From an uncultured Trueperaceae bacterium (GTDB lineage: Bacteria > Deinococcota > Deinococci > Deinococcales > Trueperaceae): a stretch of DNA of 64,000 bases. A program made the translations under genes and the position numbers. The DNA is taken from positions 640,001 through 704,000 of the forward strand of contig CAVSGP010000009.1 in NCBI GenBank assembly GCA_963727505.1, written 5' to 3'. How positions within the stretch are numbered: the stretch's first letter is position 1; every line of letters starts with the position of its first letter. The notes beneath the pieces were generated by a model. That model did not search any database. It saw nothing but the letters and a program-made list of their open reading frames with translations, and was not told the origin of the DNA. Shown piece by piece: positions 5,745 to 15,941 of this stretch.

Positions 5745-7817
5745 ATGACTACCCAGACGAAGATTGACCTGCACAAGACCCGCAATATCGGCATCGCCGC
5801 CCACATCGACGCGGGCAAGACGACGCTGACGGAGCGGATCCTGTTCTATGCGGGGCGCATCCACAAGATGGGGGAGACCCACGAGGGCGCCTCCCAGATG
5901 GACTGGATGGAGCAGGAGCGCGAGCGTGGCATCACGATCACTTCGGCCGTGACGCAGTGCTTCTGGCTCGACACCCGCATCAATATCATCGACACTCCAG
6001 GGCACGTCGACTTCACCATGGAGGTCGAGCGCAGCATGCGCGTGCTCGACGGCGCCGTGGCGGTGTTCGACGCCAGCCAGGGCGTGGAGCCGCAGAGCGA
6101 GACGGTGTGGCGTCAGGCCGACAAGTACCGCGTGCCGCGCCTCGCCTTCGCCAACAAGATGGACAAGACCGGGGCGGACTTCCAGCTCGTGCTCGACAGC
6201 ATGGAGGAGCGCCTCGCGGCGAACGCCGTGGCGATCCAGTGGCCGATGGGGGCCGAGGACAAGTTCGCCGGCATCCTCGACCTGGTGGACATGAAGGCGG
6301 TCATCTACGGTGACGATCTGGGCAAGGACATCCAGTTCGTGGACATCCCCGCCGAGTGGCAGGACACCGCCGAGGAGAAGCGCAACCTCATGATCGAGCG
6401 CCTGGCGGACGTCGACGACGATGTAGCGCTGCTGTTCCTGGAGGGCGAGGAGATCCCGACCGAGACGATCAAGTCCGCCATCCGGCAGGCGACCATCGCC
6501 CAGAAGATCTTCCCGGTCCTGTGCGGCTCGGCCCTCAAGAACAAGGGCGTGCAGCGTGTCCTCGACGCCGTTGCCTGGTATCTGCCCAGCCCGCTCGACG
6601 TGCCGCCCGTGCGCGGCGTGATCCCCGACACCGGTGAGGAGCAGACGCGCCCGGCCGAGGAGGACGCGCCTACCGCGGCGCTGGCGTACAAGGTCATGAC
6701 CGACCCCTACGTGGGCCGGCTGGTGTTCGTGCGGGTCTACTCGGGTGCGTTCGTCTCCGGCTCCTACATCTACAACGTGTCCAAGGGCAAGCGCGAGCGC
6801 ATCGGACGCCTGCTGAAGATGCACGCCAACTCCCGCGAGGAGGTGGAGCGCATCGGCGCCGGCGACGTGGGCGCCGTGATCGGGCTCAAGGACACCAGCA
6901 CCGGCGACACGCTCGCCGACCCGGATCACCCCATCGAGCTCGAGTCGATCGAGATCCCCGAGCCGGTCATCACGGTAGCCATCGAGCCGGCGTCGAAGGC
7001 CGACCAGGACAAGCTGTCCAACGGTCTTGTGAAGCTGGCCGAGGAGGACCCGACCTTCCGCGTGGAGACCGATGCCGAGACCGGGCAGACCAAGATCTCG
7101 GGCATGGGTGAGCTCCACCTGGAGATCATCGTGGACCGGCTCAAGCGCGAGTTCAACGTCAATGCCCACGTCGGCGCGCCGCAGGTGGCGTACCGCGAGA
7201 CCATCACGCGGAAGGTCGACGTCGAGGGCAAGTTCGTGCGCCAGACGGGCGGTCGCGGTCAGTACGGCCATGTCAAGCTGCAGGCCGAGCCGCGCGCCCG
7301 GGGCGAGGGCTTCGAGTTCGAGAACGGCATCGTCGGCGGCGTCATCCCCCGTGAGTACATCCCGGCCGTGCAGAAGGGCGTCGAGGAGGCCATGCAGAAC
7401 GGGCCGCTACTCGGTTTCCCCATCGTCGACATGAAGGTGAAGCTCTACGACGGGTCGTACCACGAGGTGGACTCGTCGGAGATGGCCTTCAAGATCGCCG
7501 CCTCGATGGGGTTGCGCGAGATCATGAAGCAGGGTGGGGCCGCAGTGCTCGAGCCGGTCATGCGGGTCGAGGTGGTCACTCCTGACCAGTACATGGGTGA
7601 CGTCATCGGGAACCTGAACTCGCGTCGCGGCCAGATCCAGGGCATGGAGCCCCGCGGCAACGCCCAGGTCGTCACCGCCCACGTGCCGCTTGCCGAGATG
7701 TTCGGCTACGCGACCGACCTCCGTAGCCTGTCGCAGGGCCGGGCCGTCTTCACGATGATGCTCGATCACTACGACCAGGTCCCGCGCAGCATTCAAGAAG
7801 AGCTCGTCAAGAGCTGA
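5745..7817 (+). CDS. fusA: Elongation factor G
   Basis: [35 protein letters not shown]. Confidence 0.98.
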
Positions 7818-7857
7818 GAATCGTCCGACCTCGTTTCGGAGTCGAAGGAGAACAACG

Positions 7858-9077
7858 ATGGCTAAGGGTGTGTTTGAGCGTACGAAGCCGCATGTGAATG
7901 TGGGGACGATTGGGCATGTGGATCATGGGAAGACGACGTTGACGGCTGCGATTACGTTTGCGGCTGCGGCGGCGGATCCGAGTGTGGAGATTCAGGATTA
8001 CGATCAGATTGATAAGGCGCCGGAGGAGAAGGCGCGGGGGATTACGATTAATACGGCGCATGTGGAGTATCAGACGGTTGCGCGGCATTATTCGCATGTG
8101 GATTGTCCGGGGCATGCGGATTATGTGAAGAACATGATTACGGGTGCTGCGCAGATGGATGGTGCGGTGTTGGTGGTGTCGGCTGCGGATGGGCCGATGC
8201 CGCAGACGCGTGAGCATATTTTGTTGGCGCGTCAGGTGGGGGTGCCGTCGATTGTGGTGTTTTTGAACAAGGTGGATATGGTGGATGATGAGGAGTTGTT
8301 GGAGTTGGTGGAGATGGAGGTGCGGGAGCTTTTGTCTTCGTATGAGTTTCCGGGGGATGAGATTCCGGTGGTGTCGGGGTCTGCGTTGAGGGCGTTGGAG
8401 GCGTTGCATGGGAATCCGAATATGCAGCGTGGTGAGGATGGGTGGGTGGATAAGATTTGGGAGTTGTTGGATGCGGTGGATTCGTATGTTCCGACGCCGG
8501 TTCGGGATACGGAGAAGCCGTTTTTGATGCCGGTGGAGGATGTGTTTACGATTACGGGTCGTGGGACGGTGGCTACGGGTCGTATTGAGCGTGGTGGGGT
8601 GAAGACGGGGGATGAGGTTGAGATTGTTGGGTCTGGGGGATACGCGGAAGACGGTGGTGACTGGGTGTGGAGATGCATCGGAAGACGTTGTCGTCGGGGA
8701 TGGCTGGGGATAATGTGGGGGTTTTGTTGCGGGGTGTGGGGCGTGAGGAGATTGAGCGGGGTCAGGTGTTGGCGAAGCCTGGTTCGATTACGCCGCATAC
8801 GGTGTTTCGGGGGTCGGTGTATGTGTTGAAGAAGGAGGAGGGGGGGCGGCATTCGGCGTTTTTTTCTGGGTATCGGCCGCAGTTTTACTTTCGGACGACG
8901 GATGTGACGGGGGTGGTGTCGTTGCCGGAGGGTGTGGAGATGGTGATGCCTGGGGATAATGTGGAGCTTGCGGTGGAGTTGATTAAGCCGATTGCGATGG
9001 AGGAGGGGTTGCGGTTTGCGATTCGTGAGGGGGGTCGGACGGTCGGTGCGGGTGTCGTGACGGCCGTGACGAAGTAA
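7858..9077 (+). CDS. tuf: Elongation factor Tu (two apparent +1 G insertions near 8630 and 8664, probably sequence errors)
   Basis: [29 protein letters not shown]-terminal half [15 protein letters not shown] in another frame; removing one G from each GGGT restores [21 protein letters not shown]. Confidence 0.95.
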
Positions 9078-9079
9078 CC

Positions 9080-9400
9080 ATGGCAGCCCCCAAGATCCGA
9101 ATCAAGCTCAAGGCGTTCGATCACCGAAGCCTGGACAGTTCCGCCACCAAGATCGTAGAGACGGTCCGGCGCACGGGCGCCAAGGTCGCCGGCCCGGTGC
9201 CGCTCCCGACCCGCATCCGGCGGTTCTGCGTGCTGCGTTCGCCGTTCGTCGACAAGGACAGCCGGGAACACTTCGAGATCCGTACCCACAACCGGCTGAT
9301 CGACATCAAGTCGCCGACGAAGAGCACCATCGATTCCCTCATGCACCTCGATCTGCCGACCGGGGTGGACATCGAGATCAAGACCGTCGGAGGACGATGA
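9080..9400 (+). CDS. rpsJ: 30S ribosomal protein S10
   Basis: [25 protein letters not shown]. Confidence 0.98.
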
Positions 9401-10023
9401 GCGTGAAAGGCATTCTCGGCACCAAGGTGGGCATGACCCAGGTGTGGTTCGGCGACCGGCTCGTGCCGGTGACCGTCGTCCTCGCCGGGCCCTGCCCCGT
9501 GGTGCAGCGCAAGACGCCGGAGCGTGACGGCTATTCCGCCGTGCAGCTCGGCTGGGTGGAGAAGCGCGAGAAGCTCGCGAACAAACCCCAGCTCGGGCAC
9601 TTCCGCAAGGCGGGGGTCGCGCCGCAGCGTCACCTGGTGGAGTTCAGGGACTACACGCCCGACGACGACAACGTCACGGTCGAGATCTTCGAGCCGGGCG
9701 AGACGGTCGACGTCACCGGCACCAGCAAGGGACGAGGGACCGCCGGCGTGATCAAGCGCTGGGGGTTCAGCGGCATGCCTGCCAGCCACGGCACCAAGAA
9801 GAAGCACCGCCACGGCGGGTCCATCGGCAACCGCAAGTCCCCGGGCCGCGTCTACAAGGGCAAGCGCATGGCGGGCCGCCACGGTGCGGCTCCCGTGACG
9901 ACGGTCGGCCTCGAGGTCGTGGACGTTCGCAAGGACGACAACCTGATCCTCATCAAGGGTGCATTGCCCGGCGCGAACGGCTCGATGCTGGTAGTCAAGC
10001 AATCGAACAGGAGGGCGCGCTGA
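9397..10023 (+). CDS. rplC: 50S ribosomal protein L3
   Basis: [25 protein letters not shown]. Confidence 0.97.
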
Positions 10024-13127: not shown

Positions 13128-13553
13128 ATGCTGCTTCCCAAGCGCGTCAAGTACCGCAAGCAGATGCGTGGCCGCATGAGAGGCGCCACCAAGGGCGGCG
13201 ACTACGTCGCGTTTGGCGACTTCGCCCTGGTGGCGCTGGAGCCGGCCTGGATCAAGTCGAACCAGATCGAGGCCTGCCGCGTCACCATGAGCCGCTATTT
13301 CAAGCGCGGCGGCAAGATCTACATCCGCATCTTCCCGGACAAGCCCGTGACCAAGAAGCCACAGGAAGTCCGCATGGGGAAGGGAAAAGGCGCCGTGGAG
13401 TACTGGGTCTCGGTCGTCAAGCCGGGGCGCGTGCTCTTCGAGGTCGCCAACGTCACGGAGGAGCAGGCGAAGGAGGCTTTCCGCCTCGCCAGCCACAAGC
13501 TCCCCATCAAGGTCAAGATGGTCCACCGGGAGATCTACGATGAAGCCCAATGA
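13128..13553 (+). CDS. rplP: 50S ribosomal protein L16
   Basis: [18 protein letters not shown]. Confidence 0.98.
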
Positions 13554-13740
13554 GGTCCGCAACCTGACGTCGGACGAGGTCCACCTCGAGGTGGACAAGC
13601 TCCGCCAGGAGCTTCTCGACTTGCGGATCCAGGCGGCCGTGGGCCACGCCTCCAACCCGAGGCGCATCCGCACGGCGAAGCGGGAGATCGCCCGGCTGCT
13701 GACCATCGCCGGCGAGAAGGTCGAGGAGACGACGCGATGA
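13540..13740 (+). CDS. rpmC: 50S ribosomal protein L29
   Basis: KREIARLLT; operon order. Confidence 0.94.
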
Positions 13741-13982
13741 AGAGAGCCATGCATGGGCGCGTCGTGAGCGACGGTGCCGACAAGACGGTGACGGTGGACG
13801 TGGAGCGGCGGCTCAAGCACCCGCTCTACGGCAAGGTCGTCACGCTGTCGAAGCGCTACCTCGCCCACGATGAGCGCAACGAGTACAAAGTGGGCGACGT
13901 GGTGGAGATCACCTCAAGTCGCCCGATCAGCAAGCGCAAGCGCTTCGTCGTGACGCGCCTGCTCGAGAAGGCCCGGGGCTAA
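13737..13982 (+). CDS. rpsQ: 30S ribosomal protein S17
   Basis: GRVVSD..DKT, HPLYGK, RPISKRK. Confidence 0.96.
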
Positions 13983-14005
13983 GGGCAGGGCAGGAGCATT
14001 CCGTC

Positions 14006-14374
14006 ATGATCCAGCAGGAGACCTACCTCGATGTGGCCGACAATTCCGGCGCCCGGCGGATCCAGTGCATCCGGGTCCTGGGCACCGGTCAACAGTTCGT
14101 CGGCTCGGTCGGCGATGTGGTCGTGGCGGCCGTCAAGGACGCCATCCCCCACGCGCAGATCAAGAAGGGCGATGTGGTGAAGGCGGTCATCGTCAGGACC
14201 AAGAAGGAGATCAACCGCAAGGACGGCTCCTCCATCAGGTTCGACAGCAACGCCGCCGTCATCATCAACAACCTGAACGAGCCGCGCGGTACCCGCGTGT
14301 TCGGCCCCGTCGCCCGGGAGTTGCGCGAGAAGCGCTTCATGCGCATCGTCTCGCTCGCACCGGAGGTGCTGTAG
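14006..14374 (+). CDS. rplN: 50S ribosomal protein L14
   Basis: [26 protein letters not shown]. Confidence 0.98.
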
Positions 14375-14375
14375 T

Positions 14376-14705
14376 ATGTCGAGGCCGAAGATCCGCATCC
14401 GCCGGGGCGACCAGGTCCGGGTGATCGCGGGCAAGCACAAGGGCGCTGAAGGCGAAGTCCTCACCGTCTTCCGTGACACCAATCGTGTGCTCGTGAAGAA
14501 CGTCAACGTCATCAAGAAGGCGCAGCGGCCGACGCAAGACAACCCGCGCGGCGGTTTCCTCGAGCAAGAAGCGCCCATCCACCTGAGCAACGTGCAGCTC
14601 CTCGACCCCCAGTCCGGCGAGCTCACGCGCGTGGGCTACGACGTCGACGAGAGCGGTCACAAGCACCGTGTCGCCCGCAAGTCCGGCGCCCGATTGGACG
14701 AATAG
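14376..14705 (+). CDS. rplX: 50S ribosomal protein L24
   Basis: KOW motif [22 protein letters not shown]. Confidence 0.97.
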
Positions 14706-14712
14706 GAAGAGC

Positions 14713-15261
14713 ATGGAGAAGGTAACGTTACCCATCAAGGAACGCTACGAGCAGGTCAAGAGCCAGCTCGTCGAGCGCCACGGCTACAGCAATCCCATGG
14801 CCGTCCCGCGGGTCGAGAAGATCGTCATCAACATGGGGTTGGGTGAGGCCCGGGAGGACTCGAAGGTCCTCGAGCGTGCCTCCAGGGATCTGGCGCAGAT
14901 CGCGTTGCAGCGCCCGGTCGTGACCAAGGCCAAGAAGTCGGTGTCGAACTTCAAGGTGCGCGCCGGCATGGCGATCGGTCTCAAGGTGACGCTGCGCGGG
15001 ACGCGCATGTGGGCGTTCCTCGATAAGCTGATCAATGTCGCTCTGCCCAGGGTGCGGGATTTCCGCGGCATCAGCGCCAACAGCTTCGACGGTCGGGGCA
15101 ACTACAGCCTCGGGGTCCGGGAGCAGCTGGTGTTCCCTGAGATCAACTACGACCAGGTCGATGCCACCCGAGGCATGGATATCACCATCGTGACGACGGC
15201 GGAGAGCGACGAGGAAGCGCGCAGCTTGCTCGAGTTCCTCGGCATGCCGTTCAGGAAGTAG
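14713..15261 (+). CDS. rplE: 50S ribosomal protein L5
   Basis: [25 protein letters not shown]. Confidence 0.97.
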
Positions 15262-15270
15262 GGAGGACAC

Positions 15271-15456
15271 GTGGCAACGAAAGCCCAGATCGCCAAGTCC
15301 AATCGCAAGCCCAAGTACGAGGCCCGGCACGTCAACCGCTGCAGCCGCTGCGGGCGCTCGCGTGCGTACCTGCGCGACTTCGGCCTGTGCCGCATCTGCG
15401 TCCGGGAGATGGCGCACAAGGGCTACCTGCCCGGAGTCGTCAAGGCCAGCTGGTGA
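15271..15456 (+). CDS. rpsZ: 30S ribosomal protein S14 type Z (zinc-binding)
   Basis: CSRCGR...[13 protein letters not shown]. Confidence 0.96.
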
Positions 15457-15545
15457 TTCGCGGCGCAACAAGCGAGAAGCGTTACTAGCGGGGCAAAGGT
15501 CAACGCGCTTTGCGTTGAAACCGGCCCCAGGAGGACCCACAAACG

Positions 15546-15941
15546 ATGCAAACGGATCCCATTGCTGACATGCTCACCCGCATTCGGAACGCCCAGGCCG
15601 TTCACATGGCCAGCGTCGACGTTCCGGCGAGCAAGTTCAAGAAGTCCCTGGCGGACGTACTGGTCCGCGAAGGTTACCTGAAGTCGGTCGAGGAGACCGA
15701 GGTCGGCGGCCACCCCGTGCTGAAGATCGCGTTGAAGTACGGTCCCAGGCGCGCGCCCGTCATCCACCAGATCACCCGCGTTTCCACGCCCGGGCGTCGT
15801 GCCTACGCCAAAGGGAAGCACGTCCCGGTGGTGCGCGGTGGTCTCGGCGTGGCGGTCGTGTCGACCTCCCACGGCCTCATGATCGACTCGGAGGCACGCC
15901 GCAAGAACGTCGGCGGCGAGATCGTCTGCGAGGTGTGGTGA
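15546..15941 (+). CDS. rpsH: 30S ribosomal protein S8
   Basis: TDPIADMLTRIRNA, GGEIVCEVW. Confidence 0.98.
   Translation: MQTDPIADMLTRIRNAQAVHMASVDVPASKFKKSLADVLVREGYLKSVEETEVGGHPVLKIALKYGPRRAPVIHQITRVSTPGRRAYAKGKHVPVVRGGLGVAVVSTSHGLMIDSEARRKNVGGEIVCEVW

Follow-up and report, generated by a model that had tools for sequence, protein, structure and literature searches.

The tufA gene for elongation factor EF-Tu lies in a 64,000-nucleotide window of DNA from an uncultured Trueperaceae bacterium (assembly G000: 3.26 Mb, 15 contigs, approximately 70% GC; the window is G000:C9:640001-704000), and nearly all of its silent sites are written in G or T. The axis of the bias is amino versus keto: C and A are gone wherever one synonymous step gives T or G. 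The trait is native and inherited, deepening stepwise along the family tree. It is independent of replichore and, in several cases, of gene conversion. A selection-like fixation bias acting on the tuf transcript is our preferred explanation, with insulation from the termination factor Rho ranked first among its possible causes; we infer both the selection and its agent from the sequence, and put the combination somewhat short of an even chance.

The tufA coding sequence (CDS) runs from 7858 to 9077 on the + strand of the window and has 405 codons once two spurious bases are skipped. Its G/T-only body, delimited by site classes, GC skew and the extent of the stretch in which %C does not exceed %G, occupies 7861..9041. 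Site classes were counted over the first 393 codons, the last 12 being treated as the tail. Neither C nor A is found at any of the 208 four-fold sites, which are G (.80) or T (.20). At C/T two-fold sites T makes up.953 (82/86), A/G two-fold sites are G in 84/84 cases, Leu is TTG in 23/26 and Arg is CGG or CGT in 23/24. The C-to-A step that is also synonymous for Arg goes unused. The genome background is quite different, with four-fold sites C.49, G.41, T.06 and A.05, C/T two-fold sites C.91 and A/G two-fold sites G.89. In the final 12 codons (9042..9077), which are still identical in both copies of the gene, C-ending codons reappear, at 3/11 sense codons.

The flanking genes have normal usage. 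Upstream, fusA (5745..7817, +) prefers C (four-fold C.53, G.39; C/T two-fold C.92; A/G two-fold G.98; TTG 1/47) and, being on the same strand only 40 nt away, is presumably co-transcribed with tuf. Downstream, rpsJ (9080..9400, +) begins 2 nt past the tuf stop, and it resembles fusA in its codons, as do rplC, rplD and rplB. At C/T two-fold sites C reaches.92-1.0 in fusA, rplC, rplD and rplB (.875 in rpsJ) compared with T at.95 in tuf. Measured in 200-nt windows, GC skew is +0.34 to +0.59 over 7800-9099, drops back at about 9050 and stays within about ±0.17 in the flanks; GC content falls to.56-.59 from.63-.70. The fusA-tufA spacer is normal in composition. Runs of three or more A/C-only letters occur at 1.6 per kb in tuf and at 61-75 per kb in the neighbours, and the corresponding figures for ACA are 1.6 and 7-22 per kb. 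The initial annotation of this stretch had described tuf as G/T-rich at its silent sites unlike its neighbours, with none of the 24 codons after ATG ending in C, GTC and GCC returning from 9042, C-ending fusA and rpsJ, and a 23-letter insert in EF-Tu. Site classes and GC skew bear out this description, the sequence reads as stated and the insert is present.

That annotation had also supposed that tuf is duplicated, and a second copy, tufB, was found at G000:C9:397945-399162, following tRNA-Thr/Tyr/Gly/Thr genes and preceding rpmG-secE-nusG. The two copies match over 1219 bp at 99.7%, covering 7858-9076, ie the near-identity is confined to the CDS and the flanks are unrelated. The identity tract had been expected to coincide with 7858-9041; it does cover the skewed body, but runs on to 9076 through the unskewed tail. 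The 79-nt leader of tufB is normal (C 22, G 30), as is rpmG. In each relative the two tuf copies score equally against the query, so that a genome's own two copies resemble each other more than they do those of other genomes.

A genome-wide GC-skew scan (300-nt windows, n=32,574, standard deviation 0.084, cut-off |skew| > 0.35) gave five long tracts and a few isolated windows besides. The tracts are tufA, tufB, two recA genes and, with opposite polarity, a gene for an sqdB/SQD1-like epimerase (the sqdB-like gene). Ranking 3615 long frames gene by gene placed tuf (z 8.8-10.4) and recA (z 6.5-7.0) at the G/T end and the sqdB-like gene (z -7.0) at the C/A end; the two tuf and two recA copies are the only genes of this genome with a comparable G/T skew. 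The recA tracts, both on the - strand, are recA1 (G000:C2:79570-80658) and recA2 (within G000:C9:351351-352673). Over 943 bp (codons 16-329) the two recA sequences match at 100%; their N- and C-termini differ. The skew in them is limited to about codons 24-308, where four-fold sites are G.89 and C.04; at the ends four-fold C is.65. A recA duplication with a homogenised core occurs in several of the family's genera, among them that of G012, which is unskewed. The sqdB-like gene (G000:C9:387231-388442, -; Pfam Epimerase and GDP_Man_Dehyd) is single-copy and mirrors tuf, with four-fold C.914, C in 127/127 C/T two-fold codons, A 39 against G 29 at A/G two-fold sites and CTC for 40/42 Leu. It lies about 10 kb from tufB. 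The mirror bias is lineage-specific, being strong in 5/7 sampled congeners and one other genus and absent from G019 and G020.

The sharp boundaries of the skew and the reduced GC of tuf might suggest foreign origin or a chimeric mis-assembly. As assembled, the CDS is split into two open reading frames (ORFs) by extra bases near 8627-8633 and near 8662-8666, and the only differences between tufA and tufB cluster in this 32-bp spot. This low-quality spot (8627..8666, +; two extra bases and 3 substitutions relative to the other copy) is probably an unpolished piece of a repeat. Both extra bases are absent from contigs of 4/4 metagenome runs from 3 studies (X1, X2, X3, X9), and the frameshifts are therefore assembly errors. 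The run contigs span fusA to tuf (7736-7887 and 7464-7887, 0 differences) and tuf to rpsJ (9047-9600), end k-1 bases inside the tuf repeat, and have a depth in tuf about 2-3 times that of the flanks; gaps between the pieces (eg 7888-7916) carry no evidential weight. The junctions are therefore real and tuf is naturally a two-copy repeat. The EF-Tu tree yields the family labels, with the skew nested within one family, and congeners carry the same gene, equally skewed, at 92-98% nucleotide identity. The proposal that tuf was not acquired horizontally is thus upheld by the EF-Tu tree, no species tree having been built, and a foreign or chimeric origin has a negligible probability, being refuted for practical purposes.

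Within this family the third-position A/C share of tuf falls from.53-.57 (G021, G012, G016) through.32 (G011) and.17-.19 (G014, G017) to.02-.05 (G019, G020 and this genus). Two other families contain members with moderate skew (A/C.17-.34) beside unskewed ones (.73). The recA gene is skewed only in this genus, G015, G018, G019 and G020, where it is duplicated or collapsed at contig ends; families with single-copy recA have no recA skew. A period-3 K-pattern scan of 41 genomes was of no use for finding skewed genes: it returned thousands of matches, because codons starting with G match too.

The recoding extends well beyond the family. A 13-codon EF-Tu stretch written in G/T-ending codons was used as the search motif, and the loci obtained are an ascertained sample in that sense. 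At least 117 stretches matched, in metagenome-assembled genomes (MAGs) labelled as many phyla, and third-position G+T was.75 or more in 37/46 loci that held most of tuf, with unskewed flanks. The site-class pattern was repeated in 9/9 genomes: four-fold C went from.19-.47 to 0-.08, G and TTR-Leu went up, and T/(G+T) was lower in tuf. Across the same nine genomes AGR-Arg was unchanged (72/405 in flanking genes, 41/214 in tuf). The common layout begins at codon 2 and ends some 16 codons short of the stop, with the 3' switch at one protein position, after ...RFAIRE. In 7/8 two-copy genomes 7-15 of the last 14-19 codons end in A or C, although the copies are identical there. Full-text literature searches found no published description of G/T recoding in tuf.

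The initial annotation had attributed the skew to a C-to-T/G process acting only on the tract shared by the two copies. In general terms, a repeat-linked process would strip C (and A) from the sense strand of a duplicated, converting tract, through deamination of single-stranded recombination intermediates, lesion-initiated conversion or biased heteroduplex repair. Several observations favour it. The only G/T-skewed genes of this genome are the two that are duplicated and homogenised, and recA is normal outside its shared core. Eight of 8 further genomes checked with skewed tuf (7 of chromosome level) have two copies 0-2 nt apart, and in other MAGs many contigs with a skewed tuf end 31-46 codons into the gene, as repeats do. 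The chemistry of deamination has the amino-to-keto direction. The recA gene is skewed in 5 genera with the duplication and in no single-copy family.

The shared tract and the skew do not coincide, however. The tuf skew stops 36 nt short of the end of the identity tract, and the recA skew starts 8 codons inside the 5' edge and stops 20 codons inside the 3' edge (24-60 nt), so that homogenised yet unskewed sequence remains in the tuf tail and at both edges of the recA core. In G003, G019, G020 and G000 the recA skew keeps constant limits (about codons 25-310), while the start of the identity tract varies between codons 1 and 16 and its end between 325 and 338. Genes can also convert and remain ordinary: in G012 the tuf pair (1218 bp) and the recA pair (972 bp) are both 100% identical with ordinary codon usage, and the tuf copies of G026 are 99.9% identical and unskewed. 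The mirror gene is single-copy. A Nitriliruptoraceae MAG (G046) has tuf with third-position G+T of.96 as the sole copy found by protein and DNA search in the genome as assembled; the contig with this tuf runs through fusA-tuf-rpsJ-rplC. Taken together, the homogenised but unskewed stretches, the unskewed identical pairs and the single-copy mirror gene go against a process tied to the shared tract.

Other multicopy sequences had been expected to show the same skew. A repeat survey gave 11 pairs of at least 200 bp and 90% identity, and only tuf and recA were skewed; a pair of Crp-family regulators (G000:C5:221088-221798 and G000:C9:357711-358421) identical to 99.9% over 711 bp has a skew of 0.02. 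With a single 16S gene in the assembly, rrn spacers give no comparison, and repeats of 1267 bp and 4.8 kb sit at contig ends and may be assembly overlaps. The longer one, an identical, inverted 4819 bp at the contig ends G000:C4:1073779-1078597 and G000:C14:130680-135498, is an unresolved repeat or an assembly overlap, and no Rfam family matched it. A relation to replichore, also raised at the outset, was not found. The leading strand is the + strand of C9 and the - strand of C2 throughout; replication runs in the direction of transcription through tufA, tufB and recA1 and against it through recA2. The G/T-rich strand of recA2 is thus the lagging strand of C9, and the skew goes with the coding strand and not with the replichore.

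No glycosylase is known to us that would act on a single strand to favour T over C and G over A. Family-1 uracil-DNA glycosylase (Ung; TIGR00628), the only family of these enzymes searched for, was found among the relatives G000-G040 only in families f2 and f5, both unskewed. Endonuclease V (EndoV; PF04493) was found in f3, f4 and G025 and, within this family, only in the unskewed G012. Ung is thus not found in the three skewed families nor EndoV in the strongly skewed genera, a pattern that would suit a repeat-linked process but is confounded by phylogeny; as an explanation the presence or absence of these enzymes was set aside, on this account and because there are unskewed genomes that lack both. 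Conversion of tuf, in the portion of PMC5485169 drawn on here, starts uniformly and spreads both ways within the gene, which gives neither the 5'-3' asymmetry nor the strand polarity seen here. The association of recA skew with duplication keeps the repeat-linked process alive at lower odds, and we consider it improbable as the source of the bias.

Mutational flux and fixation bias make different predictions for the ratio of T to G. A rate matrix was derived from 892-1023 four-fold sites in nine neighbouring genes, compared with two congeners. With C>T and A>G raised 200-fold, the flux model predicts a T/(G+T) of.34-.35. A fixation bias towards keto bases predicts.15-.18, together with a silent rate lower by 2-3-fold. 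For tuf of G000 the observed value is.20, and four further genomes give.16-.21. The four-fold divergence of tuf is 2-4 times below that of its neighbours, in line with the fixation-bias prediction, and per-family T/(G+T) in tuf is the same as in the background. In 5/6 genomes, then, the G:T ratio appears to fit fixation bias better than C-to-T flux; this is moderate evidence, dependent on the models. The lower observed T also counts against a repeat-linked flux.

The same comparison bears on transcription-associated mutation, in which the heavily transcribed non-template strand, possibly in R-loops, would deaminate C and A. Asymmetry linked to transcription classically shows as an excess of G+T on the coding strand, and tuf has that excess with a polarity that follows transcription. 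But the flux model overpredicts T, the tufB leader, the spacer, the tuf tail and the same-strand fusA and rpsJ are all normal, and the polarity of the sqdB-like gene is opposite. This mechanism is very unlikely.

Classical translational selection, with codons matched to the supply or modification of tRNAs, fares worse still. The genome does have G34, U34 and C34 tRNAs for four-codon boxes, so that G-ending codons have tRNAs of their own. However, C/T two-fold codons share one tRNA and yet flip from 91% C to 95% T, and the codons avoided in tuf are the favoured ones in fusA and the ribosomal-protein genes. Skewed and unskewed relatives alike have the CCC anticodon in the tRNA-Gly that precedes tufB, and this anticodon was accordingly rejected as a cause. 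The earlier claim that the bias is not ordinary translational codon choice is supported by the C preference of the ribosomal-protein genes and fusA, and a bias shared by other highly expressed genes, which would have spoken for such choice, was not seen. The two-fold sites bring translational selection close to refutation, and we regard it as a most improbable cause.

The limits at the CDS, the coding-strand polarity, the 5'-3' asymmetry, the grading among relatives, the slow evolution and the single-copy mirror gene point instead to a selection-like pressure on the translated transcript. We propose that a long-acting fixation bias drives the silent sites of tuf to keto bases (G, or T where G would be non-synonymous), and that the recA core of this clade is subject to the same bias in weaker form. 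The bias would act on the sense transcript or its transcription-translation complex and not through mutation tied to duplication; gene conversion would merely keep the copies identical and spread whatever gets fixed.

Among causes at the level of the transcript, Rho avoidance is the best fit. A C-poor, G-rich sense RNA without A/C-only triplets should lack a rut loading site, and the antisense RNA of tuf would become an ideal Rho substrate. The last 40-50 nt would need no protection, because Rho loaded there could act only past the stop codon, and the unprotected tail would be shorter than the Rho footprint. In the portion of Nadiras et al. 2018 drawn on here (PMC6144790), 28/32 regions free of C>G bubbles gave no Rho termination in vitro; %C, %CA, %YC, %AAC, %ACA and %CAC were among the best descriptors of termination class, as were %G, %GG, %GT, %GTG and %GGT, the G-rich motifs loading on the non-terminating side. 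These descriptors are consistent with the amino-versus-keto axis in tuf. By the same measure tufA lies within a 1355-nt C>G-bubble-free stretch (C9:647770-649124; %C at or below %G in every 78-nt non-template window) with a mean C-G of -28%, which with tufB and recA2 is the most extreme of the genome. The sqdB-like gene forms one C>G bubble of 1413 nt, its mean being +23%.

Several observations weigh against insulation from Rho, or against fixation bias itself, beside the association of recA skew with duplication given above. In G020 T/(G+T) is.37, in agreement with the mutational model. Rho was found in 41/41 relatives (38 over the family cut-off), skewed and unskewed, as well as in 5/5 other genomes with a G/T-coded tuf 5' end (31-34 codons on the fetched loci); its presence cannot discriminate, because unskewed relatives carry it too. 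Arg is not shifted from CGN to AGR (1/24 in this tuf), a change that would eliminate C. Nor is T disfavoured relative to G in this genus, contrary to a pure rule of maximising G minus C. The first 23 or so codons of recA are unskewed, which protection from Rho does not predict. Single-copy recA is normal in 5 of the other genomes with skewed tuf, from 5 other phyla (G+T.49-.54), which would suit a cause linked to duplication. Lastly, ribosomal-protein genes and fusA are unaffected, and a special reason for tuf and recA must therefore be assumed.

The rho open frame of this genome (G000:C4:260741-261970, -) encodes 674 aa compared with 415 model positions, suggesting a long N-terminal extension. 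Across the family rho frames range from 519 to 837 aa; their length was tried as a correlate and does not track the skew.

Selection on some other property of the sense RNA, such as less self-pairing, fewer A/C-motif (eg ACA) targets for endoribonucleases or toxins, or less single-strand damage, would account for the CDS limits and coding-strand polarity as well as Rho does. The depletion of A/C-only runs and of ACA is in its favour. The predicted folding of tuf is -0.293 kcal/mol/nt compared with -0.382 ± 0.009 for the same protein in background codons, and the corresponding values are -0.322 and -0.408 ± 0.012 for recA and -0.186 and -0.297 ± 0.009 for the sqdB-like gene. Weaker mRNA folding is, on these calculations, a predicted consequence of the recoding, one that leaves the tail unexplained. 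The exemption of the last 16 or so codons and the unaffected ribosomal-protein genes have no explanation under such a property, and for minimal pairing C/A would beat G/T, yet tuf uses G/T. We hold an RNA property other than Rho loading to be unlikely.

A wider form of the preferred explanation, insulation from Rho, can be stated tentatively, and we think it rather doubtful: many phyla may write the body of EF-Tu, and in this clade recA too, so that Rho cannot load, and may write mirror genes as continuous Rho loading sites, which would amount to a regulatory layer in silent sites. A bolder alternative is that the skew may reflect a conversion-linked, strand-specific drive in duplicated genes, an analogue of biased gene conversion on the amino/keto axis.

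The tuf gene is a much-used marker and model gene, and silent sites taken to the limit of synonymy against the preference of the genome indicate a strong undescribed force. If that force is Rho avoidance, the sequence would provide a read-out of which transcripts are shielded from or exposed to termination; if it is linked to conversion, bacterial gene families would be subject to a drive of a new kind. There are practical consequences as well. Because coding converges across phyla, nucleotide-level phylogenies of tuf are distorted. The trait creates long spurious antisense ORFs, as in this window, where frames of 200 and 206 aa (7807..8852, -) and a further C/A-rich one of 289 aa (8232-9101) are by-products of composition and not genes. 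It also gives rise to G-rich repeats, in which assemblers and polishers make mistakes, two frameshifts in the present case.

Some further regions of the genome are unusual in composition. A pyridine-nucleotide-disulphide oxidoreductase gene (G000:C1:10344-11819, +) is unusually C-ending (C3.71, G3.18, z -5.2), and genes near it on C1, as well as on C2 at 7-13 kb, lean the opposite way (third-position G+T.63-.71). On C9 a tandem repeat (G000:C9:11318-12230) with a unit of about 135 bp and 90-93% identity has a skew of +0.2, and is adjoined by a KaiC-like C-ending gene at 13419-15695 of that contig.

Several known systems resemble the tuf recoding in part. Transcription- and replication-associated asymmetries give an excess of G+T on the non-template or leading strand, but they are weak and extend over whole transcripts or replichores. 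The keto-over-amino direction in tuf is the same; here, however, the bias is extreme, stays within the CDS, spares the adjacent same-strand genes and does not depend on replichore. Repeat-induced point mutation in fungi leaves C-depleted duplicates, but it ruins the coding sequence and strikes every sizeable repeat; in this genome the changes are confined to synonymous sites and other repeats are untouched, and unskewed duplicates exist. The codon bias of highly expressed genes is likewise gene-specific, CDS-limited and strongest in tuf, but the codons used by tuf are the opposite of those in the ribosomal-protein genes of the same genome.

The concerted evolution of tufA and tufB in Salmonella and E. 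coli takes place in the same canonical contexts (the str operon, and tRNA-tufB-rpmG-secE-nusG), with identity ending at the CDS borders. As far as the portions of the two reports drawn on here go (PMC5485169, PMC6053082), strand-specific recoding of silent sites is not mentioned, and in the present genomes conversion occurs both with and without skew. Concerted evolution of tuf is described in six phyla, including Deinococcus-Thermus, as the longest-lasting case (PMC6053082, in the portion drawn on, where composition does not come up). A further likeness is to the C>G-bubble-free, Rho-refractory regions of PMC6144790: tuf has the composition that defines them over 1355 nt, with G/T motifs enriched and A/C motifs depleted. 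The regions in that report, in the portion drawn on, are ordinary ones of E. coli and Salmonella, none of them a gene purged to the limit of synonymy as tuf is.

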